A DNA stretch of 64,000 nt from a virus (IMGVR_UViG_3300007609_001205:40834-104833), one strand, 5' to 3'. Positions 47-51,583 are shown, counted from the first letter of the stretch. Numbers and translations are program-made. Notes: generated by a model from the sequence alone, not told the origin.

Positions 47-1639
47 GTGAATTCAATATATAAATATATGAAGAAATTAAATAGAGAAGAGATGATAGAA
101 AAGATAATAGAAATACACGGAAAAAAGTATTTATTCAATTTCTTCAAATACACATCATACAAAGAAAAAGTTCAATTAATCTGTAAAACACATGGTAAAT
201 TCAATATTTCATTAAGTAATTTAATAGGAAATAAAAGAGGTTGTCCTGAATGTGGAAGAACAAGAGGTTGGGAATCAAATAAAAAAACAACTGATGAGTT
301 TATTGAAAATTCCCAAAAAATACATAAAAATAAATACAGTTATGAGAATGTAGTATATGAGAAATGGAATATCAAAGTATCTATAACCTGTAAAATACAT
401 GGTGATTTTCTCCAAAGGCCAAATACGCATTTAAATGGAAGTGGTTGTCCACAATGTGGTAAAAGAAAAAGAAGTAACAAAAAACCAAAAAAGATAGACA
501 TTAAAAAAATAAAAGAATTGAACTTTATAAATTTAGCAAAAGCCAAACACAATAATAAATATGATTATACACTTGTAGAATACCAAAGAAGCAATGAGAA
601 GGTCAAGATAGTTTGTAAGAAGCATGGAATATTCCAACAAACTCCACACCATCATAAAAATGGAAGTGGTTGTCCACAATGTGCATATCTAAATCAATTT
701 GGACCAAGACTTAAGACATGTGATTTTATCTCTATTTCAAAAAACAAACATAATAACTATTACACGTACACAAAATCTAATTACACAGGATATAAAAACA
801 AAATAATAATAACATGTCCAATACACGGTGATTTTAAACAAATACCCAAATATCATATGAACGGTGGTGGATGTATAAAATGTAATAATGGAAATGGGAA
901 TAGAAATAGGAATATTCTAAAATACACTACAAAAGAATATATTGAAAATTGCCAAAAAATACACAAAAATTATGATTACAATTTTTGTGAGTATAAGGGG
1001 ATGAAGGAAAATGTTAAAATTATATGCAATAAACATAAAGAATTTGACATCAACGCATACCTACACATAAATGGAAGTGGGTGTCCAAAATGTTCATTGG
1101 ATATGAGGAAAAGAACAAAGGACGAATTTATACAGGAGGCAAACGAAATACATAACAATATATATAAATATCTTATAAGAGATGACTATGTATCGATATC
1201 AGATAGAATACCCATAATATGTAATGAACATGGAACATTTCAACAAAAAGTTGAAACACATCTAAAGGGATGTGGTTGTAACCTTTGCAAAACAAAAAGT
1301 AGAGGGGAGATATCAATAATTAACTTTTTAAATAAATATAATATACCACACACAAGAGAAAAAACGTTCAATAATATAGATAATACAAGACTTAGGTTTG
1401 ACTTTTGGTTACCCCACAAAAAAACATTAATAGAATATGATGGGAAACATCATTTCAAACCCATAAAATATTTTGGTGGTGAAAAAGCATTCGAAAAAAT
1501 TCAAATAAATGATGAAATTAAAAACAGGTACTGCATCGAAAATAATATAAACCTCATAAGAATTAGTTACAAAGAATATAAGAATATTAAAAATATATTA
1601 AAAAATAAATTATTGATAAATGATAAATTCAAAGCCTAA
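47..1639 (+). CDS. DUF559/Vsr-like (PD-(D/E)XK) homing-endonuclease-type protein with six ~50-aa zinc-ribbon-like repeats
   Basis: Six repeats of pattern H..KYDY...EKVKI.C..HG.F.Q.P..H.NGSGCP.C. C-terminus RFDFWLP...IEYDGKHHF matches the DUF559/Vsr endonuclease motif. The track ORF opens at GTG 47; the first ATG is at 68, directly after TATAAATA. Confidence 0.6.
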   Translation: MNSIYKYMKKLNREEMIEKIIEIHGKKYLFNFFKYTSYKEKVQLICKTHGKFNISLSNLIGNKRGCPECGRTRGWESNKKTTDEFIENSQKIHKNKYSYENVVYEKWNIKVSITCKIHGDFLQRPNTHLNGSGCPQCGKRKRSNKKPKKIDIKKIKELNFINLAKAKHNNKYDYTLVEYQRSNEKVKIVCKKHGIFQQTPHHHKNGSGCPQCAYLNQFGPRLKTCDFISISKNKHNNYYTYTKSNYTGYKNKIIITCPIHGDFKQIPKYHMNGGGCIKCNNGNGNRNRNILKYTTKEYIENCQKIHKNYDYNFCEYKGMKENVKIICNKHKEFDINAYLHINGSGCPKCSLDMRKRTKDEFIQEANEIHNNIYKYLIRDDYVSISDRIPIICNEHGTFQQKVETHLKGCGCNLCKTKSRGEISIINFLNKYNIPHTREKTFNNIDNTRLRFDFWLPHKKTLIEYDGKHHFKPIKYFGGEKAFEKIQINDEIKNRYCIENNINLIRISYKEYKNIKNILKNKLLINDKFKA

Positions 1640-2159
1640 TAATAATAAATATCACCAAGGAAATTACATTCCTATAAATAAAGAAAAAGTAATAAAACTA
1701 AACTCAGAAGGGGGAATCTACTACCGTAGTTCCCTCGAAAAAAAAAAAATGATGGTTTGGTTCGATAATAATGATAAAATAATTAGATGGTGTGCAGAGT
1801 GTAACAAAATACCATACCAACTCACACATTATGAAAAATCAGGTGATATAAACTTAAAAAGCCATACCTATTATCCCGATTTCTATTACGAATTAGAAAA
1901 GAATGACAGAACAACCTCAAAAGTTATATGTGAGGTAAAACCACACAAGGAATATGAAGATGTTATTCTATTCGAAAAGAAATTGTTCAATGTACCCCAA
2001 AATGCAACCACAAAAAAATTGAAAAATTTAGAATATCGACTTAAAATGGCACAAAAGAATTCACAGAAATGGAAAACAATGATACGTTACTGTGAGAAAA
2101 AGGGACTTAAATTCATTGTTATAACAGAACAACACCTCAAAAGCAAAAAATTCAATTAA
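1620..2159 (+). CDS. hypothetical protein
   Basis: 179-aa ORF with phage-like K/E-rich composition; its 5' end overlaps the previous gene by 20 nt, so the true start may be internal. Confidence 0.35.
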   Translation: MINSKPNNNKYHQGNYIPINKEKVIKLNSEGGIYYRSSLEKKKMMVWFDNNDKIIRWCAECNKIPYQLTHYEKSGDINLKSHTYYPDFYYELEKNDRTTSKVICEVKPHKEYEDVILFEKKLFNVPQNATTKKLKNLEYRLKMAQKNSQKWKTMIRYCEKKGLKFIVITEQHLKSKKFN

Positions 2160-3106
2160 TTTTTATCACTGAACGTATCCAATGTTTTTAGAAATTCTTT
2201 ATATGTCATATCTATACCATCTCTTAGAGAGGTTTTTGGTTCCCACCCAATTTCTTTCAATTTAGAAACATCCAATAATTTTCTAGGAGTACCATCTGGT
2301 TTGCTCTGATCAAACTCAACGTTACAATAATGACCAATAACATCCTGTATCAGATACACAAGATCTCTTATAGATATATCCTCACCTGTACCAATATTCA
2401 CAATTTCACTTCCGTTATGATGTTCAAATAAATAAACACACGCCTCTGCAAGATCATCAACATAAAGGAATTCCCTTTTTGGGTTTCCGGAACCCCAAAC
2501 AACCACATTATTATCACTTGAATTCATTGATTCGTGTACCTTCCGAATAAGGGCGGGTAATACATGCGATGCTTCAAGATCATAATTATCATTCGGTCCA
2601 TATAGATTCGTAGGCATCACCGATATGAAATTTGTACCATGTTGCTCATTATACGATTGACACATCTTTATACCGGCAATCTTAGCAATTGCATAAGAGT
2701 CATTAGTGGGTTCTAACTCACCGGTCATCAAATACTCCTCTTTTATTGGCTGTTTGGACATCTTAGGATAAATACATGATGAACCAAGGAATAACAATTT
2801 CTCCACTCCATACAAATAAGAGTGGTGTATTACATTATTCTGTATCATCAGATTCTTGTATAGAAAATCTGCTTTTTTAGAATCATTCGCATGGATACCA
2901 CCTACCTTGGCGGCTGCCATAAAAACAAACACCGGACGATGTTTTTTAAAATACATATCCACTCTACCTTGGTTTGTCATGTCCAATTCTGAACTTGTTG
3001 GGGATAGTATATTATTAAATCCCCTCGATTTTAATTGTCGTATTATAGCAGAGCCAACCATACCTCTACCACCACAGACTAATATTTTAGAATACGGTTT
3101 TATCAT
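2156..3106 (-). CDS. fcl: GDP-L-fucose synthase (GDP-4-keto-6-deoxymannose 3,5-epimerase/4-reductase)
   Basis: N-terminus [15 protein letters not shown] (Rossmann GxxGxxG), plus YxxxK and NLYGPNDN motifs typical of Fcl/WcaG; its 3' end overlaps gmd by 4 nt. Confidence 0.85.
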
Positions 3107-4149
3107 TGTGTAACTTTCAATTTAATCAAATCTGCTGATACCATTTCCCTACAAAGTTCTTCAACCGTATATTCGGGTTCCCAATTAAGTACCTCTTTGG
3201 CTTTTGTAGAATCACCAAGGAGTTCATCTACCTCTGTGGGGCGGAAGTATTTCTCATCAATTTTTATAAGAACTTTATTTGTTTTCGAATCAATACCCAC
3301 TTCATCAACTCCTTCACCTTTCCACTCAATATCAACACCAATTTCACGAAATGCCATTTCACAAAAATCCCGAACTGATATCTTCTTACCAGTTGATAAT
3401 ACATAATCTTCTGCTTTTTTTTGCTGCAGCATCAACCACATACCACGAACATAATCCTTTGCATGTCCCCAATCCCTTTCAGCATCCAAATTCCCAATAG
3501 AAAGACTGTCTTGTAGTCCAAGTTTTATTTTCGCAACTGCCTGTGTTATCTTCCGAGTAACAAATGTTTCTCCACGAACAGGACTTTCGTGATTGAACAA
3601 TATACCAGAACAGGCATAAATTCCATATGACTCTCTATAATTCACAGTTATCCAATGTGCATATAACTTTGCTACACCATAAGGACTACGTGGATAAAAG
3701 GGTGTAGTTTCCTTTTGTGGAACTTCTTGTACAAGACCAAACATCTCAGATGTTGATGCTTGGTAAAATTTGGTCTTATTTTCCAATTTCAGAATACGGA
3801 TGGCTTCAAGGATTCTCAAAGTTCCCAGTGCATCAGAGTTTGCCGTGTATTCAGGTGTTTCAAATGAAACCTTAACGTGTGATTGTGCAGCCAAATTATA
3901 AATTTCAGTTGGCTGCACTTCCTGTACGATCCGTATTATATTTGTCGAATCCGTAAGATCCCCATAATGCAAAAAGAAACGATCCTTATATTTGGGGTTT
4001 TCGTATATGTGGTCTATCCTATCTGTATTGAACGAGGAACTTCTTCTTTTTATACCATGGACAATATACCCATTGTCCAAAAGTAATTCCGCCAAATATG
4101 ACCCATCTTGTCCGGTTATACCGGTAATTAATCCAACTTTTTTAGCCAT
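3103..4149 (-). CDS. gmd: GDP-mannose 4,6-dehydratase
   Basis: [43 protein letters not shown] is the canonical GMD N-terminus; SDR catalytic region present. Confidence 0.9.
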
Positions 4150-15716: not shown

Positions 15717-16343
15717 TTATACATATCCCGCCACGAATGGTGGAGATATTGTAAAGTTATTATCAATAAATTCATCAATCCAGTAATCACAAACAAAACT
15801 AGCATCTGCTTGAAAAATTTCTTTTGATGACCAATCCATTGATGGAGAAGATACAGATTTCAACTGACAGTTTTGGAATGTTACTCTTCGTAGAACAAGA
15901 CCCTTCTTATCATGTTGATTCACTATCATTGTACCAATAGTATCTGCTTTATAATGAAGAGTACCATTCTGTGAATTCCACGCAAGATCATACCAAGCCC
16001 TTAATGTATTCCATGTTTCCATAGAACCTTGGTTATTAACATTCACATTGAATTTAATACTCAAATCATCAATATGTGTCTGTTCCGGACCCGCATCCAA
16101 AAATGCACGTGTAGTGTATTTGAACCTTTGATCCTTTACACCAATTTGTTTATTGGTCAAGTTAAGGTCAATATCTGTTGCTTGTTGTAATAAAAGAACA
16201 GGGTCACGACCTTGTGCTTGTAATATTGTTGGTAAGATAAAAGTAATCTCGAATAAATTCATGAATACTGGCTCTTGTGGATCAGAACCCGGACCACCTG
16301 GTGACCCAGTCATTTGAAGTTGAGTGAAATGTGGTAATGGCAT
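15717..16343 (-). CDS. tail tube protein, T4 gp19-like
   Basis: MNLFEITF matches T4 gp19 PNLFQVEI, and C-terminal SFVCDYWIDE matches LALDYWE. 208 aa. A terminator follows the gene. Confidence 0.75.
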   Translation of the reverse strand: MPLPHFTQLQMTGSPGGPGSDPQEPVFMNLFEITFILPTILQAQGRDPVLLLQQATDIDLNLTNKQIGVKDQRFKYTTRAFLDAGPEQTHIDDLSIKFNVNVNNQGSMETWNTLRAWYDLAWNSQNGTLHYKADTIGTMIVNQHDKKGLVLRRVTFQNCQLKSVSSPSMDWSSKEIFQADASFVCDYWIDEFIDNNFTISPPFVAGYV

Positions 16344-16544
16344 ATGTTTTATGTTTCTTTTTGTTATATATTCCTTAGAATATTCTCTCTTGTATTATAT
16401 ATTCCAAACAAAAAGTCATTTTTTAACTTTCATCACAAAAAAGAAATATAAACATCAGTATATACCACACTAAAAAAGAGTTTTTATATTTTATATATAA
16501 TAATAGACTCACATAAAAAGTGGTCTAAAAATAAAGTATCTGTT

Positions 16545-16727
16545 ATGAGAAATATTAAAGAAAACAAATTAACTTCTGTTATGAAGTTCAATGAGTGGTC
16601 AAAAGAACCAAAGGCCGAGAAAGCCAATGGAGAAGTTACAAATGAATCTGCTAAATGTGATTGCACAGATTGTGATTGCAAAGGAGATTGTAAAAATTGT
16701 GACTGTGATTGTAGTTGCTGTAAATAA
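16545..16727 (+). CDS. small cysteine-rich protein (metallothionein-like CxC cluster)
   Basis: C-terminal 23 residues CDCTDCDCKGDCKNCDCDCSCCK contain 12 Cys arranged as CxC/CC. A TTTTATATATAATAAT motif lies ~60 nt upstream. Confidence 0.5.
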   Translation: MRNIKENKLTSVMKFNEWSKEPKAEKANGEVTNESAKCDCTDCDCKGDCKNCDCDCSCCK

Positions 16728-16744
16728 GACCAAACTAAACATAA

Positions 16745-17371
16745 TCAATTAGAATATAACAATTTACTAAGGGTTATAGGTGATGGGAAATATCCAATAT
16801 CATCTACTTTCCGTCTAACCGAATTGAATAAATTTGAATAGAACATATCATAATCCTTAAAAATAAAATCATTATTATCAACATCCTTTATTGATCGCCT
16901 ACTCTCAATAAAGTCCTTAATATCAATAACATTGAACCTAGAACACGCACCACCAATGACTGCATGTTTGGTATAAGTGTTACCTCTCCTAAAAGGAACA
17001 TCTTTAAAAACCCCCAATTCCTCATTAAGTGATAACAACTCATTGAATACTCGTTCTGTTATTTCTTGGTGCTCAATGAATATCCCACACAGGTTTTCAA
17101 GATGTTGTTCATCAAATCCAAATGGCAAATTCCATTTTTTGGATATACCACTGACACCAACTTTTTCTTCGAGATCCTGTGATGGGAATACTGTGGAAAA
17201 ATAGATATCATACTCAGGTAATTCATTTGTTTCCAATTTTAATTTATCCAATTCAGAATTAACAGATATATAATCACCCTTCAGAAAGTCGGCTTCTATC
17301 GTAGATACTATCTCACGAAATTTATCAAATCCTTGAAAATTTTCATATAGTTTAATATACCTCATCACCAT
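16745..17371 (-). CDS. hypothetical protein
   Basis: 208-aa ORF; nothing recognised. Confidence 0.5.
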   Translation of the reverse strand: MVMRYIKLYENFQGFDKFREIVSTIEADFLKGDYISVNSELDKLKLETNELPEYDIYFSTVFPSQDLEEKVGVSGISKKWNLPFGFDEQHLENLCGIFIEHQEITERVFNELLSLNEELGVFKDVPFRRGNTYTKHAVIGGACSRFNVIDIKDFIESRRSIKDVDNNDFIFKDYDMFYSNLFNSVRRKVDDIGYFPSPITLSKLLYSN

Positions 17372-17444
17372 ATATATTATATTTTAAACATAACAAGGGA
17401 GGGATTATATAAACATATATATGCTATAAAAATAACTTACTATT

Positions 17445-18395
17445 ATGACTCAAAGTAACCATATGTCCGAAGAGGATTATCTCAAAAAATACATAAGCAA
17501 TGATGGTGGCAATAATAACCAATCACTTGAAAATATTGAAAATTACGAGAAGGAAAACACAAATACGAGCAAATCAGGATCACGTACAGAAGACCTACAA
17601 TACTTAACATTTGATATAAATCAATTACCATGTGGTAAATTTTACCCAATGGGTACAATCTTAACCGTAAGAGCAGCACAAGTAAGAGAGATTCAAGCAT
17701 ATTCAATGGTCGATGATAACAACTTTTATGATGTGGTTGAGAAGATGAATGATATGTTAGCATCATGTGTCAGATTAAAAAGACCAGATGGTTCCTTTGG
17801 AACATATTTAGAACTAAAAGACCAAGATAGATTATTCATAATTTTTCTAATAAGAGAACTCACTTTCCAAAAAGGGAACTCACTTGAAGTAAAAGAAAAG
17901 TGTTCTTGTGGAGAAGAAGTTAGTATGGAATTGAAAAGGGAAAATTTCAAATTCCACAAAATAGAACCATCACTGGAAAAGTTCTTTGATAGTTCATCAC
18001 AATCGTTTGTATTTGAGTTGAAAAATGGTACTGTTTTCAACCTAACACCACCAACAATAGGCATACAAAAAGCATTCACTGAATACATAATTGAAGAAAA
18101 TAACCAAAAAAGAAAACCAGACCTATCCTTTTTGAAAATAATACCATTTCTATTAGATGGACGTAGTTCTATAACAAACGAAGGCATCAAGAAAAAATTA
18201 CAAAAGTATCAACAACTTTCACCAAATGAATTCCAATTCTTAAATTCGGCAGTAGATAAACTTACATTCGGGATAAAAAATCTTAGCAGAGAATGCACGT
18301 GTGGTCAGGAGGTCCACACGGAAATGTCATTTCCCAACGGAGCGTCAGGTATTTTCGTTATTCATGATGCCTTTGAAAAGTTTATTAAAGAATAA
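17445..18395 (+). CDS. hypothetical protein with duplicated C-x-C-G-(E/Q)-E-V motif
   Basis: EKCSCGEEV and RECTCGQEVHTE lie ~140 aa apart, suggesting internal duplication and possible metal binding. Confidence 0.5.
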   Translation: MTQSNHMSEEDYLKKYISNDGGNNNQSLENIENYEKENTNTSKSGSRTEDLQYLTFDINQLPCGKFYPMGTILTVRAAQVREIQAYSMVDDNNFYDVVEKMNDMLASCVRLKRPDGSFGTYLELKDQDRLFIIFLIRELTFQKGNSLEVKEKCSCGEEVSMELKRENFKFHKIEPSLEKFFDSSSQSFVFELKNGTVFNLTPPTIGIQKAFTEYIIEENNQKRKPDLSFLKIIPFLLDGRSSITNEGIKKKLQKYQQLSPNEFQFLNSAVDKLTFGIKNLSRECTCGQEVHTEMSFPNGASGIFVIHDAFEKFIKE

Positions 18396-18615
18396 ACTCC
18401 TTATACAAAAACATAATAATGTGAATGAAATGGCACTTGATTGTTGGCCATTTTGGATGTTGGAAGAAAATATCTCTATAATAAATGAAATGGTTGAGGA
18501 AGAAGAAAAAGAACGAAAAAACCAAGAGGATGAACAACAACACTCAATGCCCAATTTCAACCCCGGTCAATATATGAACCAAATGAAAAATATGACAAGT
18601 GGTTTTAAGAAATAA
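18301..18615 (+). CDS. hypothetical small acidic protein (start uncertain)
   Basis: Overlaps the 3' end of the preceding gene; the internal Met at ~18431 is more plausible. Confidence 0.25.
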   Translation: MVRRSTRKCHFPTERQVFSLFMMPLKSLLKNKLLIQKHNNVNEMALDCWPFWMLEENISIINEMVEEEEKERKNQEDEQQHSMPNFNPGQYMNQMKNMTSGFKK

Positions 18616-18658
18616 CCAACCTTTGAAAACCTTATTAAATAATAAGGATATATAATAT

Positions 18659-20296
18659 ATGATATTATCTGAAACCATTCAAGTAAAAACCAAGGGGAAT
18701 AAGAAACTCAAACACTACAATTCACTTGGATACAATACAAGTAAAGAGTTTATAGAAGTTTATATAAAGGACTTGCCTCTATCAATATCCAATGAGGTAT
18801 TAGTAAAATGTGATTATTGTGGCACTGAACACTATAAAAAGTATGTCGATTATAATAGAGTGGCAAGTGATACTAAATACGCATGTTCCCGTAAATGTGG
18901 AACGATCAAAGCAAAAGAAACAATTGAGAATTCCCCAAAAAAAGACCATCCCCTAAAAGGTAAAAAAATAGATCCGGATAAATTAAATGAGATAATCCAA
19001 AAAAGGATAAACACCAACATTGAAAAATATGGTGTTGAACATGTTCTACAAAAAGAAGAAATAAAAGAAAAATTCAAAAAAACCAACATAAAGAAATATG
19101 GGACTGACAACTATGCAAAAACAGACGAATTCATAGAAAGGCAACGAAAAAATACAATCGACAAATATGGTGTTACACATATATCAAAATTAGAAGAAAC
19201 AAAAGAGAAAATAAGAAGAACAAATATAAAGAAATATGGTGTTCCTTCCACATTGAATATTGAACGGGCAAATGAAAACAGACTTGAAGTTTTCAAATCT
19301 GAAGAACACAGAAAGGATTATGAAATATCTAATCACAAAGATTATATAAAATACATAGGAAACAGCACATCACTGTTCATGTGTGAAAAAGGACACGAAT
19401 TTCGAATAAAATATGATAATTATAAAAGTAGATTATCGAATAATATACCTTTATGTACCACATGTTACCCCATAAACAGTTTAACATCCATAAAAGAAGA
19501 AGAACTATACAACCACATATCATCACTATACAACAAAGAAGTCATAAAATCCCACCGGGATATAACGGAATTGGATATATACATCCCAAGCCTCAATATT
19601 GGGTTTGAATTCAATGGGTTATATTGGCATTCAAATAAATTCAAAGACAAGAATTACCATCTGAATAAGACAAATTACTTTAAGAAAAAGAACATAAGAG
19701 TTATACACATATGGGAAGATGAATGGGATAATAAGAAAGAAATAATATTATCACAAACAAAAAACCTACTCAACAAAAGCAATCGAATAGGTGCAAGAAA
19801 ATGCAAAGTTATTGAAATAAATGACACATCCATAAGTAAAGGATTCTTAAATGAAAACCACATACAAGGGAATGATAGATCCAATATTAAAATAGGACTA
19901 TATTACGAAGGAAACTTAGTATCTATTATGACATTTGATAAAAGTGAAGGCAGGAAAAAAATGCCAAATGGTGAATGGAATCTGTCAAGATTCTGTAACC
20001 TTAAAAACACAACAATAATGGGTGGATTCAGTAAATTACTTAAATATTTCATAAAAACATATAGTCCCAATAGAATAATAAGTTATGCAGACCGTTCGTG
20101 GTCAGAAGGAAATGTTTATACCAAAAACGGATTCACTAAAATATCAGAAACAAGACCCGATTATAAGTATTTAGTGAACAACCAAAGAATACACAAATCA
20201 AGGTATAGAAAATCATACACAGGTATCTCCGAATCAGATCTTGACATATTAAAAATATATGACTGTGGGAAGTTGAAATTTGAAATGGTATTATAA
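18659..20296 (+). CDS. DUF559/Vsr-like homing-endonuclease-type protein with KYG repeats
   Basis: Four ~30-aa repeats (IEKYGVEHV / IKKYGTDNY / IDKYGVTHI / IKKYGVPST). The central block DIYIPSLNIGFEFNGLYWHS...IRVIHIWEDEW matches the Vsr/DUF559 fold, followed by a C-terminal domain of unknown function. Confidence 0.6.
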   Translation: MILSETIQVKTKGNKKLKHYNSLGYNTSKEFIEVYIKDLPLSISNEVLVKCDYCGTEHYKKYVDYNRVASDTKYACSRKCGTIKAKETIENSPKKDHPLKGKKIDPDKLNEIIQKRINTNIEKYGVEHVLQKEEIKEKFKKTNIKKYGTDNYAKTDEFIERQRKNTIDKYGVTHISKLEETKEKIRRTNIKKYGVPSTLNIERANENRLEVFKSEEHRKDYEISNHKDYIKYIGNSTSLFMCEKGHEFRIKYDNYKSRLSNNIPLCTTCYPINSLTSIKEEELYNHISSLYNKEVIKSHRDITELDIYIPSLNIGFEFNGLYWHSNKFKDKNYHLNKTNYFKKKNIRVIHIWEDEWDNKKEIILSQTKNLLNKSNRIGARKCKVIEINDTSISKGFLNENHIQGNDRSNIKIGLYYEGNLVSIMTFDKSEGRKKMPNGEWNLSRFCNLKNTTIMGGFSKLLKYFIKTYSPNRIISYADRSWSEGNVYTKNGFTKISETRPDYKYLVNNQRIHKSRYRKSYTGISESDLDILKIYDCGKLKFEMVL

Positions 20297-20334
20297 CCAC
20301 CCAAAAGATACTATGATTATCTAATATATATAGT

Positions 20335-21000
20335 ATGAAATACCTTAAAAACTTTAAATCACTCAACGAAGAAAAAGATTGTGGGTGTGGATGTAATGGA
20401 GATTGTAACGGAAATTATAAATTAAACGAATCTGTGAATATTTCCGAATCTTTGGGATACCATATAGAAAATGACATACCACTCACAGAAAACATATTCA
20501 GATATGGCTCAGAACAATTCTTCAACACTATAAATGAGGCAAGAGAATTGTATTTATCCGGTGATCTAAAACTATCGGAGGAAAATGAGGAATTGGTTAA
20601 AACAGAAATTGGACAAAAGGCCATATTCGAAGGGAATGAAGTTTGGCTTGATATCCCAATGGAGGACGAAACCCCTATAAATGAATCCAAGGATAAGTAT
20701 AAAGGCAAAAAGTCTTCAAAACCAATGAGAGATACATCAGGGGGCAAAGCATATAAAGTATATGTACCCGGTTGTTCCAAGAAAACACCATCAAACCCAA
20801 GAGGTATAAAACTAGTTAGATTTGGATCTGGTGGTCTAAAGGCAAAGTTAAGTGACTCCGATGCCAAAAAACGATACGATTCAAGACATGGCTGTTCCAA
20901 AGGGAAACACAACGATAAATGTAAAGCCGGTTATTGGTCTTGTAGATTACCAAGATATGCAAAGGCACTTGGTCTAAGTGGTGGTGGAAAATGGTGGTAA
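20335..21000 (+). CDS. hypothetical protein with N-terminal CxC cluster and G/K-rich C-terminus
   Basis: DCGCGCNGDCNGN lies near the N-terminus and resembles the C-terminal CxC cluster of the 16545..16727 ORF. Confidence 0.5.
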   Translation: MKYLKNFKSLNEEKDCGCGCNGDCNGNYKLNESVNISESLGYHIENDIPLTENIFRYGSEQFFNTINEARELYLSGDLKLSEENEELVKTEIGQKAIFEGNEVWLDIPMEDETPINESKDKYKGKKSSKPMRDTSGGKAYKVYVPGCSKKTPSNPRGIKLVRFGSGGLKAKLSDSDAKKRYDSRHGCSKGKHNDKCKAGYWSCRLPRYAKALGLSGGGKWW

Positions 21001-21006
21001 TATAAT

Positions 21007-21399
21007 ATGAAATGTGAAAATTGTAATTGGGAATGGGATATTGAGAAAGATGATGAAAATCCATATCTATGCCATCAGTGTGGGTATGATACAAAATTGG
21101 GGGATTTTGATATGGAATCTTTCCACAAATGGTTGAGAGAAAATAGACCATATGACGAAGAATTGAAAGAGGGCTACCAGATAAGAACCTTCTACGAAAG
21201 TGTTGATAATGACGAATTGGTATGGCACAGAGATAAAGAAGATAGAATAATAGAACCCATTGGAGAAACAGATTGGTTATTCCAACACGACAACGAAATC
21301 CCGATTAAAATAGAAGGAAGAATATACATACCGAAGAATAAGTACCACCGAATAATCAAAGGATCTGGTGAACTTAAAATAAAACTGAGAAAATTATAA
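21007..21399 (+). CDS. zinc-ribbon protein
   Basis: MKCENCNWEW...CHQCGYD forms a CxxC...CxxC zinc ribbon. The gene is followed by a strong terminator. Confidence 0.5.
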   Translation: MKCENCNWEWDIEKDDENPYLCHQCGYDTKLGDFDMESFHKWLRENRPYDEELKEGYQIRTFYESVDNDELVWHRDKEDRIIEPIGETDWLFQHDNEIPIKIEGRIYIPKNKYHRIIKGSGELKIKLRKL

Positions 21400-21420
21400 A
21401 CAAACCTACGGAATATGTTA

Positions 21421-21452
21421 AAAAAAAAAGGAGTCTTTAAGACTCCTTTTTT
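21421..21452. terminator. bidirectional intrinsic terminator (AGGAGTC-TTTAA-GACTCCT)
   Basis: Perfect 7-bp stem flanked by A9 and T6. It sits between the convergent zinc-ribbon gene and the tail sheath gene. Confidence 0.7.
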
Positions 21453-21469
21453 AATTATAAAGAATAATA

Positions 21470-24400
21470 TCAAGACTGAATAAATCCACCTGACTGGATT
21501 GCACCATTTCTGAGCACATTCACATTATTCACAATTATACCCATTCCCTGAATAGGCTCGACATATGTATCGAGAACACCTATCTGATTAGCAATTATAT
21601 CACTTGTGTTATTCTCACCATCACACTTATTGAAGTATGCGAAAAGACCATCTCTCGATTTATAACTTTCACAAATAGAATCGGCTCTCAATTTTATCTC
21701 TGCTCTGATTTCAGGTGTGTTAAACTTCCACTGGTAATCAAGTAGCATATTTGTCAATTCTCTTTCCAATTCAATAAGCACTTCTCTAACATGTAAGAAT
21801 GATAAAGATGATTCGTACAATGTTTGTGCAGTGTTCTCTGTTTCGATAACGTGTCCTCTGTTTCGTTTGAAAACAATCGGGTTCATCATCGCACCATTTA
21901 AATTGGTTATGTCATCTGGTCCAAAGTCTTGCTCTACACCAGCAATATTAGTAATTCTACCATTAGTTATACCTGCTGCAATTGTCCAAGGAACAATATT
22001 AGTTACCGTGGATGTATGCTTTCTCATATAAGTAAGACCAACATATGCTGCCGGTGGAATACTTGCAGGACGACCACCATCATTCACAGTAAGGTATGGT
22101 CCGAAATAACCAACCGATGAAACACCAACCCCATCACCAAATGAGTAAAGGAATGCTGGAGAACTATTTGGATCACCACCACTTGCAATAAACTCTGTGC
22201 TTAGAACACCATCACTATCCAAGAAGGAAGGCGAAGATGAATTTTTGAAAGATTTCATCGATGGCATATTCAATATACCCAACACATCCAATCTTTCACC
22301 ACATATATCAACAAGTTGTTGCTTTGATCTCTCCGCAAGTCCAAGACCAAATCCATCAATCAAGTATCTGAAATCAAATGCTTCCTTATTTGTAATTGCT
22401 TTGAACAATGGTGTTCCTTTCGCAACCAAATTCAGAATATCTTCTTGTTTTGACTCAGTACCATCAGGCATAGACTCTTGTCTTATTCTAAAACCTTTAA
22501 GACTAATTGCTTTGTATGTTGAAACATAATCATCAACAGTTGTATATCTGAATGTCTGCTTATCACCATCGCCAAAATCTCTTATCTTGATTTCATCATC
22601 ACAAGTTATAACAACAAATGTGCTATCTTGTGCCCAAAGTCTCTTAGATAAAATACGTGTAAGTTTTCTAGGCATTTCATCAGACTCCAAAGATACTGTC
22701 GCATAGTTTGCCTCAAGATAATCACCAACTTTAATTTCAGTATATCTACTAGCACGTGCAAGGATTTTATTAGCAACCGGAACCCAACCAGATGGCTCAT
22801 CTACTTCAACAGATTGCTTGAAGTTAGAATCAAACGAATTGACATAGAAGTTATTATTCGCCAACAATGCATTGGCATCACCATCACCACCATTAAGTGT
22901 TCCAAATCTAGCAAGTGATTGAAGAGAAACATCTTCAAATGTTACCTTCATATTCAATTCATTATCAATGTACATATCAAGGTACAATGGAGCATCCTCA
23001 TAATCCCCACTATAAGCATATAAATTATCAACATCCAACAATTCTTCTACGACATTCTCATTTACCTCATATGCAAAATAACTATAAGTTGCAGATGATG
23101 AAGCAAACACACCACCACTCAAATTTGAAAGTTCCAATGCTCTTGCTTGTGCAGAAGCAGGTGTTGAATATGCTTGTACCGGGTTGTCTGGACTAAGACC
23201 TTCATCAGATTTAACAGTGAAAGAACCTTCATTCTCAACACCCGTAACAAGGAATTGGTAACCAGCACCCGAAACACTCACATCAGCCGCAGCCAAGAAT
23301 GCTTGGTTTCTATCAATATTATCATCACCGGCACCACCAAGTCCAGATAACTGAACTCCGTATGGATCTTCTTCCAATAAATTAACACCGAATACTAAAT
23401 AATCATAACCTGCAAGTGAAGCAGTTACAGACTCACCGGGAACAAACTCTGCCTTTAAAGAAGAGAAGTTTGTCTTTTGGTAAATAACATCGGTTGAATT
23501 AATAAGTCCTTGGTCATATTTCTGATATAAATCAGAATACCTACCAATAACCCCTTGTGTAAGACCTGCCGGTGCAGACGTTGTTTCCGCACCTTCAGTA
23601 CCTAGAATCATCTCGTCATCCACTTTATAAAATACAAGTGGCAATTCATTACCAGCAATCGAAATTGCATCAGTAACATCTGCAAAATAATTATCAACAT
23701 AATCATCCTCAACATATGTATTAGATGATGGGTTTGTAACAGTATAATCAAAATTCAAAACAAATGAACGATCCACTGTATTAGTGTTCTTAACATCAGT
23801 AACATCGACAAAAGAAAGTGATGATTTCTGTGGGTCACCTGAACCACCAAGTGGGTCAAGTAATAAAGACCCTCTATCAGAACTAGAAGTATCAATATAA
23901 CCAAGCATGTTATTAAATGTCTTAATTCTTCTATACTGTTCATAATCTCTTGGTGTAATACTCTGGTTCGTATCTTCAAATACAACCCTGAATGAATCCG
24001 TAGTTATACCATCATAATAATAATCATTACCAACACCATAAACCAATGGATTGAATGTAGTATCACCCGCACCCGTAACCGAATGGCGAAGTGAAACATC
24101 AACCAAGTTGAATGAACCACTTGAAAAAGTACCACCGGTATTAACAGAAAATGTTGCATAACCTAACACAATATCAGAAGCAGATGGTAATGGATTCGTA
24201 TCTGGTGTAGTAGTCTGATATGCTTTGACAACACCCGTTGAATCAAGAGCCATTGCAACATGATAAGTTTCATTAGTTGTAGATACTGGGTAGTAATCAG
24301 AAGTAACCTCCAAATTAAACGAAGAAGTTGCAATCTGTACCCAAGAACCACCTATAACACAATACCCATTGTCAGATGTAGCATCAACAGTATAATCCAT

Positions 24401-25720
24401 TGATATCGCAGTAGCAGATGTCACAGATGCTGTACCATTAAGGTCATTTACATAACCTTCAGAGAACCACCATGTTCTATTAGATGGGTTATGTACTTGT
24501 CCGGAAATAATACCACCAACTCTTTCACCAGCACCATAAAAAGAACCTCTACTTGCATGTTCGCCACCAAAACTTGGAACAGAACTTGTTCCAAACAATG
24601 CCATAACATTACCAGGTCTATCCAATACTTTCTGTGTCAATGACACACTCTCAGTAATTGTTTCTTGGTATGAAAGGTAATTGATATCAACATGACCATC
24701 ATCTGAACCATCATTTGTGTCCAAATTCGTATAGTTTGTTGACCCAGATGTTGGTGGATTAGGATTCAATGAATCTCTAACCAAATTATTACCAATAAGA
24801 TCAACTAGACCCTTAGGATAATCCGTTTCAAATAAATCAATGTTAAATGCACAGAATACACCATGTTCATCAGTACCTTGGTTTATAACAGTTTCTATAA
24901 ATATATTTCGGCCATTTTGATCTCTGAAATAAGGTATCATAGAAAGACCCTCTGCATATGCAAGAGTTGTTACATTCCTATCATTTGCAAAATTTCTCAA
25001 CTCATCTTTTCTAAGACCAGATGCCGAGAAATATTGTGAAAATCTAGCATCAACAGATAAATTCAAATAATTTGAATAATCTCCCGCAATGACCACAACA
25101 TCCACAAGGTAATCGGAAACCAAATCCTTAGAATTTACATAAGGTGGGATATCTTCTTGTGATCCATACCATTCAATCATCGGAACATCAAAACCACTTC
25201 TTTGTGATTTAACGACAAATATTGTTACATATTTATCAGATAAGTTCGTAAAGTTAAGCAATCTATTTTCGTATCCTGAATTATCATCTGCCAATGCCAA
25301 GAAAGAATCAGTATCCCTCTTCCAAAAACCGGTTGTATCAAAGAATCTTCTATATGGACCCTCTCTTTCAACATCATTTTGGTATGTAGTAGCACACGAC
25401 AAAGACTGGTATTCTATTTTATCAAGAACATCATCAGTAATCAACAAGTTTATTGCATAAACTGGCGATGCTTCCAACATTTTAGAAATTGTTCTATGAA
25501 AGAAAGAACCCTTTCTTTCAAGTTGTCTATCAATAGGACCGAAGACCGATTCAAGAGAATTGATATTATCGATAAGGATAGGTGTATTAACCGGTCCCTT
25601 TCGTGAAACACCGATCACAGTATTAACAATACCATCAACTGTTGGGCTTGTTATAACTGACTGATCACTTTCTTCTGTAAAAATCCCTGGTCTTCCGTAT
25701 TTTCCGATTTGGATTGCCAT
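21470..25720 (-). CDS. tail sheath protein, T4 gp18-like (1416 aa with large insertions)
   Basis: N-terminus RPGIFTEESDQSVITSPTVDGIVNTVIGVSRKGPVNTPILIDNINSLESVFGP parallels T4 gp18 SPGIELKETTVQSTVV...GKFQWGPAFQIKQVTNEVDLVNTFGQP. C-terminus FNTPEIRAEIKLRADSICESYKSRDGLFAYFNKCDGENNTSD parallels the gp18 C-terminal domain. Confidence 0.75.
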   Translation of the reverse strand: MAIQIGKYGRPGIFTEESDQSVITSPTVDGIVNTVIGVSRKGPVNTPILIDNINSLESVFGPIDRQLERKGSFFHRTISKMLEASPVYAINLLITDDVLDKIEYQSLSCATTYQNDVEREGPYRRFFDTTGFWKRDTDSFLALADDNSGYENRLLNFTNLSDKYVTIFVVKSQRSGFDVPMIEWYGSQEDIPPYVNSKDLVSDYLVDVVVIAGDYSNYLNLSVDARFSQYFSASGLRKDELRNFANDRNVTTLAYAEGLSMIPYFRDQNGRNIFIETVINQGTDEHGVFCAFNIDLFETDYPKGLVDLIGNNLVRDSLNPNPPTSGSTNYTNLDTNDGSDDGHVDINYLSYQETITESVSLTQKVLDRPGNVMALFGTSSVPSFGGEHASRGSFYGAGERVGGIISGQVHNPSNRTWWFSEGYVNDLNGTASVTSATAISMDYTVDATSDNGYCVIGGSWVQIATSSFNLEVTSDYYPVSTTNETYHVAMALDSTGVVKAYQTTTPDTNPLPSASDIVLGYATFSVNTGGTFSSGSFNLVDVSLRHSVTGAGDTTFNPLVYGVGNDYYYDGITTDSFRVVFEDTNQSITPRDYEQYRRIKTFNNMLGYIDTSSSDRGSLLLDPLGGSGDPQKSSLSFVDVTDVKNTNTVDRSFVLNFDYTVTNPSSNTYVEDDYVDNYFADVTDAISIAGNELPLVFYKVDDEMILGTEGAETTSAPAGLTQGVIGRYSDLYQKYDQGLINSTDVIYQKTNFSSLKAEFVPGESVTASLAGYDYLVFGVNLLEEDPYGVQLSGLGGAGDDNIDRNQAFLAAADVSVSGAGYQFLVTGVENEGSFTVKSDEGLSPDNPVQAYSTPASAQARALELSNLSGGVFASSSATYSYFAYEVNENVVEELLDVDNLYAYSGDYEDAPLYLDMYIDNELNMKVTFEDVSLQSLARFGTLNGGDGDANALLANNNFYVNSFDSNFKQSVEVDEPSGWVPVANKILARASRYTEIKVGDYLEANYATVSLESDEMPRKLTRILSKRLWAQDSTFVVITCDDEIKIRDFGDGDKQTFRYTTVDDYVSTYKAISLKGFRIRQESMPDGTESKQEDILNLVAKGTPLFKAITNKEAFDFRYLIDGFGLGLAERSKQQLVDICGERLDVLGILNMPSMKSFKNSSSPSFLDSDGVLSTEFIASGGDPNSSPAFLYSFGDGVGVSSVGYFGPYLTVNDGGRPASIPPAAYVGLTYMRKHTSTVTNIVPWTIAAGITNGRITNIAGVEQDFGPDDITNLNGAMMNPIVFKRNRGHVIETENTAQTLYESSLSFLHVREVLIELERELTNMLLDYQWKFNTPEIRAEIKLRADSICESYKSRDGLFAYFNKCDGENNTSDIIANQIGVLDTYVEPIQGMGIIVNNVNVLRNGAIQSGGFIQS

Positions 25721-31094: not shown

Positions 31095-32867
31095 TTACTT
31101 TTCAGTCGGTCTTAATGGAACTGCAGTGGAACCAGCATCTCCCATATCACTTTCTGATACATCTACTGAACCTGTATCATTTTTTGGCTCAGAATTTCCA
31201 CCGAATTTCTCCAACATCTTAAGTGTTTGATACATTCCCATACCCATCATTGGATCAGTTTCATCACCATCACTAGAATCATCAGAACCATTTTGGTAAT
31301 TATAGAACTGTGGTGCTGCAAGTGCTTGTGCAGGCAATTCCTTCATAAATTCCATAAGTCTCAACTGGAATGACATATCTTTCCCAAATACATTCACAAG
31401 TTCTTCTTGACCTTTCGCAACACCTTTATTATATAGGTATTCAGCCTCACCATCCAATCTACGTGCTTCTTTATTCTCAGCAGCAGCTTGTTTCTTAATC
31501 TGTGCAGCTACAAGCGCACCTTGTTGTTCAGCTTCGGCTTTTGCTTTAGATGATGCAACTTTTGCATGGAATGCCTTCTGTTCTTCCTTATAGGTTTGCT
31601 TCAACTTATAAGCCAACTGTTTTCTCTTATCAGGAACAAGCAATTCAGGTGGAATCGAAACAGATGTTAATCGGAATTCTTTAACCTTAACTTTATTCTT
31701 CATAGCCTCATCTACAATAAATTTTTCAATAGAACTCTCAATATCACTACGTTTTGTTACGAATTCAGTAGCTTCTCTAAGTTCTCCTTGATTACGAACC
31801 TGTGACCTTACAAGTGGTGTTATTACCTTGTTTTCAAGATCAACCAAACTCCCAATGGATGATAGGATATATGGAGCATCTTCTGCATCGATCTGTACTA
31901 ATAATCGACCATTTACATGAACTTCCCAACCATCTTTTGTCTTAGTACCCATTGCATCATCTGCAACACCCGATTCTTTACCATATTCAATTGGCTCACG
32001 TGTTTGGGTGATATCACCATTCTCACTCACTTCAAGGTCAATGGTTGCAGTTTTATAATTACCCGCATACTTCCATGTCTGAACACGTGTGTTGAATTTA
32101 GTGATAGTATATGCATTTGTGTTGATGTAATATTTTGATGGTGTAAGTACTTTCTTTCGAATACCTCTAAACCCTTCACCTACAACCGGGTTTGCTAACT
32201 CACCACCATCTGCTGCTCGTTGAATGTCATCTGGAACTTTACCGACTTTTGATAAAACCACACCAACATAACCAGGGGGGATTGTAGTGGCTCTTTCTAA
32301 TTTCGTTCTAAATAAATAAGTATTGATCTTATACTCACCAGGTTCAAGTACATTTAATTGTGGTCCTTTACGCCCACCATTCTCCAAAAAGTACTTCGCA
32401 TCCAACATATTTGTTTCAATACTATCACGATATTGTTCTTGATCAGGTGATACCCAATCAGGTGCAATAAATTCCTCACCTACCAATGGCTGACCATCAA
32501 GTGCAGTAAGAGTTCCCACCATACCATCTGGAACAACAAATGTAGAATCATAGGTAACGGTGTTGTTTACATTAACCCACCAATGCCATGCCATACCCTC
32601 CGAAAGAATTTTCGCCTGACGACCATTTTCGCCATTTTTTGAAATGACACCATCCGTGTTTGATACACCACCCCATTTCTTATAAATAAGACCAATATTC
32701 TCCTTTGGGACACTGATCAAGGAAGTGGCCACGAAACCACCCAAAAAGAAAATGGCTGATACTACCCACAAATGCCACCTTTTGACGGGAAACCTTGGTT
32801 GTTGAAAAATGGGTATAAAAGATGCTCCAAGAGCAATAACCGATAAAATTAATAAAATTGCATACAT
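31095..32867 (-). CDS. membrane-anchored SPFH/band-7 (flotillin/YqiK-like) protein
   Basis: Two N-terminal TM helices and a central SPFH-like region. A coiled coil rich in A/E/Q/K (AEAEQQGALVAAQIKKQAAAENKEARRLDGEAEY) is typical of flotillins. The C-terminal tail is acidic. Confidence 0.55.
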   Translation of the reverse strand: MYAILLILSVIALGASFIPIFQQPRFPVKRWHLWVVSAIFFLGGFVATSLISVPKENIGLIYKKWGGVSNTDGVISKNGENGRQAKILSEGMAWHWWVNVNNTVTYDSTFVVPDGMVGTLTALDGQPLVGEEFIAPDWVSPDQEQYRDSIETNMLDAKYFLENGGRKGPQLNVLEPGEYKINTYLFRTKLERATTIPPGYVGVVLSKVGKVPDDIQRAADGGELANPVVGEGFRGIRKKVLTPSKYYINTNAYTITKFNTRVQTWKYAGNYKTATIDLEVSENGDITQTREPIEYGKESGVADDAMGTKTKDGWEVHVNGRLLVQIDAEDAPYILSSIGSLVDLENKVITPLVRSQVRNQGELREATEFVTKRSDIESSIEKFIVDEAMKNKVKVKEFRLTSVSIPPELLVPDKRKQLAYKLKQTYKEEQKAFHAKVASSKAKAEAEQQGALVAAQIKKQAAAENKEARRLDGEAEYLYNKGVAKGQEELVNVFGKDMSFQLRLMEFMKELPAQALAAPQFYNYQNGSDDSSDGDETDPMMGMGMYQTLKMLEKFGGNSEPKNDTGSVDVSESDMGDAGSTAVPLRPTEK

Positions 32868-38587: not shown

Positions 38588-39178
38588 TTGAAAAACATGG
38601 GCTATACTAGAAAATTTGAAAGTTTCAAAAAAAACAAAACTACCAAAGTTGATGAAAAAACACAACCAAAAGTAGAAAAAGAAATCAATGAGGCTGCATC
38701 CGAAGCAGGTAATATGTTCAAGGTTGTTGTATCCGTAGATGTTCCAACTTCTCTTGTTAATTCTTATACTAAAAAAGTTAAAGATACGTATGAAAAGGAT
38801 CTTGCTAATACATATGGTAGGGAAACTATTGCAGAAGAACTTGCAAAGTATGTTCTTACAAATTATCTAAATGTTGATGCAGTACATGCAGGAGCATTAA
38901 CAGGTGATCCAGACCCAGCACAGGCACAAGCCCAAGCGCAACCACAACAACAAGCACAAGTTCAACCACAAGGTCAGATGCAACCACAGGCACAAGGACA
39001 GCCACAAGCACAAGTACAAGAGCCACAAACACAAGTACAAGAGCCAGAAGCACAACCAATTGACCCAGAACTTCAGGCACAAGCACAATCACAAGTTCAA
39101 CCATCACCAGAAGAATTTGAGGAAATACAAGCCCAAGATGATGAAGATGAAGAAATGGATGAAGAACTTCCTATCTAA
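38588..39178 (+). CDS. low-complexity PQ/AQ-repeat acidic protein
   Basis: Central PDPAQAQAQAQPQQQAQVQPQGQMQPQAQGQPQAQVQEPQTQVQEPEAQP and a D/E-rich C-terminus, followed by a strong terminator. Confidence 0.5.
   Translation: MKNMGYTRKFESFKKNKTTKVDEKTQPKVEKEINEAASEAGNMFKVVVSVDVPTSLVNSYTKKVKDTYEKDLANTYGRETIAEELAKYVLTNYLNVDAVHAGALTGDPDPAQAQAQAQPQQQAQVQPQGQMQPQAQGQPQAQVQEPQTQVQEPEAQPIDPELQAQAQSQVQPSPEEFEEIQAQDDEDEEMDEELPI
38910..39110. repeat. CA-rich imperfect tandem repeat encoding the QAQ/PQ tract
   Basis: Runs of cacaag/cacagg/gcacaa units, which is why all three antisense frames are open here. Confidence 0.6.
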
Positions 39179-51086: not shown

Positions 51087-51583
51087 TCACTGAATAGTTT
51101 CTCTATAATCAAGTAAGTCCTGATAATTAAAGTATCTCTTTTTAAAGTAATCTTTTGGAAAATGACCAGTAATATCTGTCCAATTATCCCTATTCCCGTA
51201 TAAATACTTTATTATTTTTTCGTCCTTCTTATTATTCAGATCAAATACACTCCGTTCAAATGTCTTAGGATATTCATCAAAATTATTATACATCCATGGA
51301 TCGATTATATATCTATCATTAAGTACTGCAAAATGATGTCCATCGTCCGAATCTTCACCTTCAAGTTCAATGAAATATTCACTTTCTGGATTTTCATAAG
51401 TACTGAAACCATATATCTTTATACCATCCCCTTCATCATTCTAATTGCATTTGCAACTGATGTGCAATAAAAAGAACCACCTTTATCAATAACTTCTTCA
51501 ATTAAATTAACAAAATTTGGATCATCATATATATATGGATCAAATGTGGAATTATTCTCGAAATATTTAAGATGTTTCATTTA
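51087..51583 (-). pseudogene. split/frameshifted small gene
   Basis: A 52-codon ORF (MKHLKYFENN...RMMKGMV*, ATG at 51583) ends at a TAA. Reading resumes in another frame without a start codon (NDEGDGIKIYGF...) and continues into ORF 51087..51293. Confidence 0.35.

Follow-up and report, generated by a model that had tools for sequence, protein, structure and literature searches.

A rare cysteine-rich peptide gene in a megaphage-related viral genome, and its reading as a candidate metallothionein-like protein

The window analysed here is a stretch of 64 kb (64,000 nucleotides) from the viral sequence IMGVR_UViG_3300007609_001205, and its GC content is 27–39%. Genes of T4 type were identified in it, namely those for the large terminase TerL, a gp44-like clamp loader, a RecA/UvsX-like protein, and SbcD, together with tail genes for a gp19-like tail tube and a very large sheath-like protein. 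The tail tube protein shared 71% identity with that of LR756502 (642 kb) and 64% identity with that of LR745206 (635 kb), both from uncultured phages, and on these identities the window belongs to a relative of the megaphage group; the two records are freshwater and subsurface 'megaphages' (PMC9723777). A search for near-identical DNA in 50,697 phage records returned no near-identical record and one 82% match to a homing-endonuclease piece, and Rfam and tRNA scans of the window gave no matches. The window also carries auxiliary genes (2156..4149 on the minus strand, 57242..58894 on the plus strand, and 31095..32867 on the minus strand) for a GDP-mannose 4,6-dehydratase and an NAD-dependent epimerase of the GDP-sugar pathway, a NAMPT-like nicotinamide phosphoribosyltransferase, and an SPFH/Band 7 membrane protein. 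At 68..2159 (+), a 523-aa protein with 23 Cys combines DUF723 with the treble-clef zinc finger DUF4379 and is followed by a TnsA-like endonuclease; the two are probably another mobile endonuclease unit.

A first-pass annotation had described a 60-aa ORF with a Cys-rich C-terminus on the plus strand, and the ORF was found at 16545..16727 as described. The features of the locus are listed below.

16490..16502, plus strand: promoter-like TTTATATATAATA element, approximately 45 nt upstream of the ATG.
16520..16544, plus strand: conserved 5' leader GTGGTCTAAAAATAAAGTATCTGTT, identical at 22 of 25 positions in the related locus L032; the sequence further upstream diverges.
16545..16727, plus strand: whole ORF, 60 codons plus TAA, with the ATG at 16545 and the TAA at 16725–16727; the product is MRNIKENKLTSVMKFNEWSKEPKAEKANGEVTNESAKCDCTDCDCKGDCKNCDCDCSCCK.
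16545..16604, plus strand: conserved N-terminal segment, residues 1–20, MRNIKENKLTSVMKFNEWSK, hydrophilic and not a signal peptide.
16605..16655, plus strand: variable charged linker, residues 21–37, ending in a conserved T-N-E-S.
16656..16724, plus strand: Cys block B, residues 38–60, CDCTDCDCKGDCKNCDCDCSCCK, with 10 Cys.
16745..17371, minus strand: convergent neighbouring gene for a 208-aa protein, with no match in Pfam, PHROG, or NCBIfam.
17445..18395, plus strand: gene for a 316-aa protein, phrog_36717, which adjoins the tail tube gene in nearly all related loci.
20380..20406, plus strand: 4-Cys cluster CGCGCNGDC near the N-terminus of the 221-aa gene 20335..21000.

Four sequence types of the peptide were recognised in related phage contigs: that of the window, P0001 (whose DNA is L032), a 126-aa type (L003, L034, L036, and L058), and an 89-aa type (L059). 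The ATG, the frame, the first 20 residues, an Asn-Glu pair before the last Cys block, and a C-K-stop ending were common to all four. The window and L032 differed at 25 nucleotides, 17 of them at codon position 3, and pN/pS was 0.15 in the frame of the ORF vs 0.28–1.76 in the five other frames. Insertions and deletions in the linker between these two sequences were in frame, the sense frame was the sole frame open across all four homologues, and P0001 had been called by two independent gene callers. As for the Cys block, the last 23 residues hold 10 Cys, which are all the Cys of the peptide, rather than the 12 counted earlier; with a background of 0.8% Cys in window ORFs of at least 100 aa, the binomial probability of such a run is ~1e-15. 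Its Cys codons are a mixture of TGT and TGC. An untranslated ORF or a TG/CA-repeat artefact had been named as what could undo the finding, and on both counts, conservation and the lack of a repeat, the outcome favoured a real gene. A tandem-repeat artefact was rejected, as Tandem Repeats Finder detected none at the Cys block. We concluded that the ORF 16545..16727 is a real gene under purifying selection.

The Cys run by itself would be insufficient as proof, because an equal run at 38866..39072 on the minus strand is an artefact. A comparable origin for the peptide, as a frame artefact of antisense or low-complexity sequence, could also point to antisense frame 1, which is open in the window with a pN/pS of 0.28. 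Set against this, that frame holds stop codons in L032 and L034, the sense ATG, first 20 residues, and stop are retained in four diverged homologues, and both a tandem repeat and an Rfam family are absent. The peptide ORF is told apart from the artefact by its conservation, and the reading that it is not a gene is scarcely credible and essentially refuted. An antisense gene was likewise rejected, as the best antisense frame is interrupted by stops in the same two homologues. The artefact at 38866..39072 (-) comprises two Cys-rich antisense ORFs, with 10 Cys in 23 residues, opposite the gene 38597..39178 (+); the run is what the antisense strand reads where an acidic plus-strand protein of 193 aa has a low-complexity AQAQAQ/PQ stretch. 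These ORFs are a useful negative control for Cys-run findings.

A TATATATAA-like element lies approximately 45 nt upstream of the start in all four types (L032, L058, L059, and the window). In the window, the 70 nt ahead of gene starts held 33 copies of ATATATA[AT] where uniform placement would give 2.5, an approximately 13-fold excess, and 28 of 73 ORFs had it within that distance. It is also found upstream of 15717..16343 (-), 21470..25720 (-), and 49495..50709 (+). The motif is likely a phage promoter core, a function that we infer from the sequence; it gives no clue to timing, because it precedes structural and replication genes alike. A sigma-70 promoter and terminator scan of the window performed no better than shuffles, and the conserved 16-nt leader, searched as a repeated window motif, gave 3 matches vs 2.7 expected. 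A Shine-Dalgarno-like 4-mer at −20..−4 was present in 1 of 55 window genes of at least 100 aa. The peptide gene has none, which is uninformative since 54 of the 55 are also without one. The 20 nt upstream of window gene starts are 83% A+T, and the overall pattern points to initiation of translation independent of Shine-Dalgarno sites, as in Bacteroidota hosts.

In an alignment of the four types (A5), the residues M1, N3, I4, K5, N7, L9, S11, K14, F15, W18, S19, and K20 were invariant, giving the N-terminal consensus M-[RG]-N-I-K-x-N-x-L-x-S-x-x-K-F-x-x-W-S-K when the MAFFT placement is taken for the 126-aa type. Residues 1–20 of the window peptide and P0001 were identical at 17 of 20 positions, and the DNA changes were synonymous. 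The linker that follows is 17 aa long in the window and approximately 28 aa in P0001, with differences that keep the frame; its N33-E34 pair (16641..16646) is invariant and the next residue is S or A. Block B of the window has the spacing C-x-C-x2-C-x-C-x3-C-x2-C-x-C-x-C-x-C-C and aligns with CDCIDCDCKGDCKNCECKCCK of P0001 and CDCKDCKCGGKCTKDCKCKGKCCK of L059, so that the three sequences, with 9–10 Cys each in this block, take the aligned form CDC[TIK]DC[DK]C[KG]G[DK]C...CCK. At Cys45, a synonymous TGC/TGT change was observed. A further block of 10 Cys, block A, is present in L059 and the 126-aa type at the position of the Cys-free spacer of the window peptide. The relatives are 69–126 aa in size with 9–19 Cys (L059, 89 aa, has 19), and whole Cys blocks have been gained or lost, giving 9, 10, 11, or 19 Cys per protein. 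The opening four Cys are spaced C-x-C-x-x-C-x-C in all members. Residues between the Cys shift from Asp-rich in the window to Lys-rich in L059 while the Cys positions stay aligned, which indicates that the Cys and the N-terminus are conserved and the charged surface is not.

The peptide family is very rare and phage-restricted. A word-indexed protein search of 5.8 billion protein clusters retrieved one homologue, P0001, which was also the one true match in an exhaustive HMMER search of 1.84 billion representative proteins; three further HMMER matches were discarded on inspection as repeat-driven false positives. The peptide had no tblastn match in the 50,697 phage records. A search for related loci with a three-sequence alignment returned 182 stretches that fitted the pattern, of which none survived verification by tblastn, probably owing to the masking of low-complexity sequence. 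Of 23 IMG/VR loci picked out by a degenerate DNA scan for K-F-[NE]-x-W-S-K, 2 were real, and a scan of metagenomes with the N-terminus pattern yielded 2 loci, one being the new 19-Cys variant L059; the same pattern was found in none of 185,579 bacterial and archaeal species genomes. The gene is missing from the reference megaphages and from most related loci, a patchy distribution, and since close relatives do without it the peptide is dispensable.

The gene lies in a hypervariable island of approximately 5 kb between the tail tube and sheath genes (15717..25720), which was compared among the window, the JGI contig with P0001, and L003/L036. The island contains homing endonucleases (18659..20296, DUF7487/phrog_3339). 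In the relatives it also holds a DDE transposase-like gene, a Glu_synthase-domain gene, membrane proteins, and tandem MORN-like repeat arrays (L003:2312-3555). In L032, L034, and L036, a homologue of the convergent 208-aa gene adjoins the peptide gene or lies no more than 3 kb from it, L059 being too short to show this; in L007–L009, it occurs without the peptide. The 208-aa protein is a possible partner of the peptide; as an obligate partner it was rejected, because it occurs without the peptide. In the 316-aa gene, the duplicated CxCG(E/Q)EV motif noticed earlier was located as CSCGEEV at 17901..17921 and CTCGQEV at 18294..18314. The two C-x-C-G half-sites are approximately 130 residues apart and conserved in many homologues, and the pair probably forms a four-Cys zinc site unrelated to the peptide.

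The 221-aa gene had been put forward as a paralogue of the peptide on the strength of an N-terminal Cys cluster. The cluster is present, within DCGCGCNGDCNGN; common ancestry of the two Cys modules was not upheld. BLASTP of the peptide against the 221-aa protein gave E=0.18 with a best segment of 7 residues. A profile built from 35 N-terminal Cys modules of the 221-aa family retrieved the window 221-aa ORF at E=1.8e-7, and the peptide and its homologues were not retrieved at E<100 among 7807 ORFs (profile E>100). Moreover, the 'GDC' of the pattern C-x-GDC-(K/N)-N that the two were said to share is conserved within neither family. From these comparisons, the two modules appear to share chemistry, not demonstrable ancestry.

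The 221-aa family itself is large, with 3136 clusters at E≤0.001 and no Pfam domain, and its distant members occur in Methylophilales and Flavobacterium phages. The module C-x-C-G-C-x-x-C follows a short M-K-Y-L-K-x-F-type start in 59 of 121 members examined (49–86% identity), and on this count the N-terminal cluster is real and conserved. Other members have C-x-C or C-C only, and three homologues carry an acidic cluster of approximately 15 Cys (L023:3-920, L026:2395-3447, and L029:549-1514). Across the family (P0002-P0121), an invariant R-H-x-C...S-C-R-L signature at the C-terminus is combined with a modular, swappable N-terminus, which may hold nothing, Cys modules, DUF5824, or multi-module extensions that are rich in Lys and have K-K-N-E-S-like junctions. 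In the AlphaFold model of the 221-aa protein the core had a pLDDT of 80.7, and residues 13–15 and 17–23 were below 50, so that the Cys cluster is predicted to be disordered. Foldseek of this model against the PDB returned nothing at E≤0.001, a PDB profile search returned nothing significant, and the BFVD matches were uncharacterised phage proteins only, some of them fused to XkdF or ChaB. The gene that follows immediately, at 21007..21399 (+), encodes a 130-aa protein with a zinc-ribbon-like C-E-N-C...C-H-Q-C start; it accompanies the 221-aa gene in L010, L018, L022, L023, L025, L026, and L029.

We lean towards reading the peptide as a metallothionein-like protein that would bind metal via its C-terminal Cys block. 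The description of the tail as metallothionein-like stood up, in that it has C-x-C, C-C, and C-x-x-C motifs and no aromatic or His residue in the Cys block, and its evolution fits a metal-thiolate role. The class is defined by a mass below 10 kDa with high Cys content and by Cys motifs without aromatic or His residues. The peptide is of that size and has 10 Cys in 60 residues (17%), or 43% in the last 23, and blocks A and B of the relatives are alike in their motifs; Phe15 and Trp18 belong to the N-terminal segment and not to the block. A match to a sequence-defined metallothionein family was sought in Pfam and found for none of the four variants: no profile match to Metallothio, Metallothio_2, Metallothio_Pro, or others was obtained, the window peptide had no family at E≤1, and the three other variants gave nothing related to metallothionein at E≤10. 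There were no PDB sequence relatives at E≤10 and no PHROG match for any variant, and NCBIfam at E≤1 returned no family for three variants and, for the fourth, spurious matches on the low-complexity linker only. Lacking any such match in metallothionein profiles, NCBIfam, PHROG, or the PDB, the peptide stands outside every sequence-defined metallothionein family.

In the model that we propose, the peptide has three parts: the conserved 20-residue N-terminus, a charged spacer of variable length, and the C-terminal Cys block. The block would need metal ions in order to fold, building with them a metal-thiolate cluster like those of metallothioneins. The AlphaFold model of the peptide without metal had a mean pLDDT of 52.5 and no fold. 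With its 9–10 Cys, block B could hold approximately 3 divalent ions (Zn or Cd) or more Cu(I). Mammalian metallothioneins have two domains with Zn3Cys9 and Zn4Cys11 clusters (PMC10243857), and by that measure the 9–10-Cys blocks are of the right size for clusters; because relatives carry a second 10-Cys block, the family would be built of one or two cluster domains. In an infected cell, the peptide may buffer, sequester, or deliver a thiophilic metal, with the conserved N-terminus probably tethering the cluster to a partner. Being hydrophilic at its N-terminus, the peptide would be expected to stay reduced in the cytoplasm, which makes a secreted disulfide knot unlikely. Cys modules are in recurrent use in this clade, since the unrelated 221-aa family has N-terminal Cys/Asp-rich clusters of 2 to approximately 15 Cys. 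We infer metal binding, the identity of the metal, the stoichiometry, and the biological role from the sequence. Several points count against the metal reading: no Pfam metallothionein family or PDB relative was matched, a plain metal buffer does not need a strongly conserved 20-residue N-terminus, which weighs against a pure buffer role, the family is very rare and dispensable, and the genomic context names no benefit of the peptide to the phage.

It is rather unlikely that the peptide is a zinc-stabilised inhibitor or adaptor of a specific host or phage protein, acting in anti-defence, take-over, or with the 208-aa protein as its partner, and using the Cys block as a structural knot. Hypervariable islands are typical sites of accessory counter-defence genes, and the location of the gene in one between the tail tube and sheath genes, rich in homing endonucleases and with a transposase-like gene in a relative, is in line with such a role, as are the patchy distribution, the conserved N-terminus, and the co-occurrence of the 208-aa gene in those peptide loci that are long enough to show it. 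Against it, the 208-aa gene is also present without the peptide, and the charge reversal and the gain and loss of blocks in the Cys region oppose a conserved binding surface there. Gain and loss of blocks, together with Asp-to-Lys replacement at fixed Cys spacing, fit a metal-thiolate cluster and would be a poor fit to a recognition surface or to the core of a RiPP. A RiPP precursor, in which residues 1–20 would be the leader for a maturase elsewhere in the genome or in the host and the Cys block a cross-linked or heterocyclised core, is unlikely, even though the leader-spacer-core layout, the highly conserved leader, and the conserved Cys positions suit it. It is formally possible because 64 kb of a genome of possibly >600 kb is visible (the relatives LR756502 and LR745206 have 635–642 kb). 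RiPP precursors normally adjoin their enzymes. The earlier remark that the window holds no radical-SAM enzyme or other maturase was borne out among the ORFs checked by motif and by Pfam/PHROG: the C-x3-C-x2-C motif is absent from every other window ORF, and no radical-SAM, YcaO, LanB/C, or MNIO-type family was detected by Pfam in the 20 largest ORFs or by Pfam/PHROG in the neighbours. The conserved 208-aa and 316-aa neighbours are without an enzyme signature in Pfam, PHROG, and NCBIfam, and where Lys has replaced Asp between the Cys, most candidate acceptors for Cys-Asp cross-links are gone. NCBIfam gave no precursor family match either, so that in the 64-kb window neither of the marks of a RiPP, a nearby modifying enzyme or membership in a curated precursor family, was found and the suggestion of a RiPP precursor lost ground.

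Packaging of the peptide as an internal, ejected virion protein, possibly metal-loaded, is unlikely; it and the metal-cluster reading could both hold. The N-terminus would act like a T4 capsid-targeting sequence and a prohead protease would cut at x-N-E|S/A, so that a small Cys-rich peptide would remain in the head and be injected along with the DNA. Apart from their conserved capsid-targeting sequence, T4 internal proteins differ from one another (PMC3012670). IPIII needs no more than its first 10 residues for targeting, and propeptides are removed by gp21 after L/I-x-E (PMC3012670, PMC9026906); phiKZ-like phages cleave after S/A-x-E (PMC9026906). The T4-type genes of the window (TerL, the gp44-like clamp loader, UvsX/RecA, and SbcD), the position of the peptide gene among tail genes, the invariant N33-E34 followed by S/A (V-N-E-A in one type), and the BFVD structural relatives of the 221-aa family that are fused to XkdF-type protease and ChaB domains all speak for packaging. 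So does the start M-K-x-[LI]-K-x-F-x-x-F of many accessory ORFs here and in relatives, which also carry N-E-S junctions. On the other side, the window yielded no prohead protease or capsid gene, Thr rather than Leu or Ile stands at P3 of the putative site in 3 of 4 types, and the likeness of the N-termini may simply come from A/T-rich codons that follow the start, in a genome of 33% GC without Shine-Dalgarno sites. In its broader form M-[KR]-x-[LI]-K-x-[FY]-x-x-[FY], often followed by N-E-S, the start was observed in many accessory ORFs, and similar starts were located as follows.

16745..17371, minus strand: start of the 208-aa gene.
20335.., plus strand: start of the 221-aa gene.
39252.., plus strand: start of an ORF in the window.
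44907.., plus strand: start of an ORF in the window.
51419..51580, minus strand: start of an ORF in the window.
61923.., plus strand: start of an ORF in the window.
L034:1984: start of an ORF in a relative.
L034:2713-3138, minus strand: start of an ORF in a relative.
L034:3144-3827, minus strand: start of an ORF in a relative.
L007:4816: start of an ORF in a relative.

This shared start might be a targeting or processing signal like the T4 capsid-targeting sequence (CTS), or equally a by-product of A/T-rich codons. The fullest combination of these ideas, a modular phage metallothionein on a targeting segment that is cut at N-E|S/A, packaged, and injected to act in metal-loaded or metal-stripping form at infection, is very unlikely.

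If the peptide binds metal, as the metallothionein-like reading proposes, large phages carry their own thiol-based metal buffers, and the handling of trace metals (Zn, Cu, and Cd) would join the host processes that phages manipulate. Among the papers listed in a literature search, none described a phage-encoded metallothionein. To our knowledge, no virus-encoded metallothionein is known, and a packaged phage metallothionein would be the first; if true, it would define a new class of phage proteins that are internal or ejected. The peptide family would also be a compact natural experiment in metallothionein evolution, with blocks duplicated and lost and basic residues taking the place of acidic ones between the Cys. 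A signal for targeting or processing could lie behind the conserved N-terminal segment and the recurrent 'M-K-x-L-K-x-F ... N-E-S' grammar of the clade's accessory proteins, and it would then help to predict which proteins of uncultured megaphages are packaged. Should the block do no more than give an orphan accessory protein a structural zinc knot, the finding would be of local interest only.

Among known systems, the T4 internal proteins IPI, IPII, and IPIII resemble the peptide as small, diverse accessory proteins with a short conserved N-terminus, a Glu-X cleavage site, and hypervariable loci (PMC9026906, PMC3012670). The likeness is at the motif level only, and the site T/V-N-E|S/A of the peptide fits the L/I-x-E of T4 in part. 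Precursors of ranthipeptide/SCIFF type are, like the peptide, short, with a conserved leader and a C-terminal Cys-rich core; the peptide differs from them in that no radical-SAM/SPASM maturase is adjacent, its Cys blocks duplicate, and the flanking residues change charge.

Metallothioneins are a polyphyletic class. The fungal copper thioneins (Neurospora crassa MT and yeast Cup1) are short Cys-x-Cys-rich peptides with G, S, D, or N between the Cys, and their resemblance to the peptide, which is negative in Pfam, is at the motif level only. The C-x-C-G-C-x-x-C module of the 221-aa family has its Cys spaced as in the C-x-C-x-C-x-x-C of Cup1. The bacterial SmtA/BmtA proteins (Pfam Metallothio_Pro) carry the family-14 signature K-C-A-C-x2-C-L-C, in which the first four Cys have the same C-x-C-x-x-C-x-C spacing as in the peptide (CDCTDCDC); in contrast to SmtA, the peptide has no profile match, no His ligands, and no sequence for a zinc-finger-like fold, and its length and Cys pattern differ. 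The two-block relatives of the peptide resemble the two-domain layout of animal metallothioneins, and the ending ...CSCCK of the peptide resembles the ...CSCCA with which human MT2 ends. Like metallothioneins, the peptide is small, with K, D, S, T, N, and G between the Cys, and its family has one- and two-block versions; the Cys density of its block is 43%, whereas approximately 30% is typical of metallothioneins. Unlike them, it is phage-encoded, has a predicted binding capacity only, and carries a Cys-free, conserved 20-residue segment with Phe and Trp followed by a charged spacer. The peptide is best read, on present comparisons, as a new phage-borne Cys protein of probable metallothionein-like type with a conserved N-terminus.
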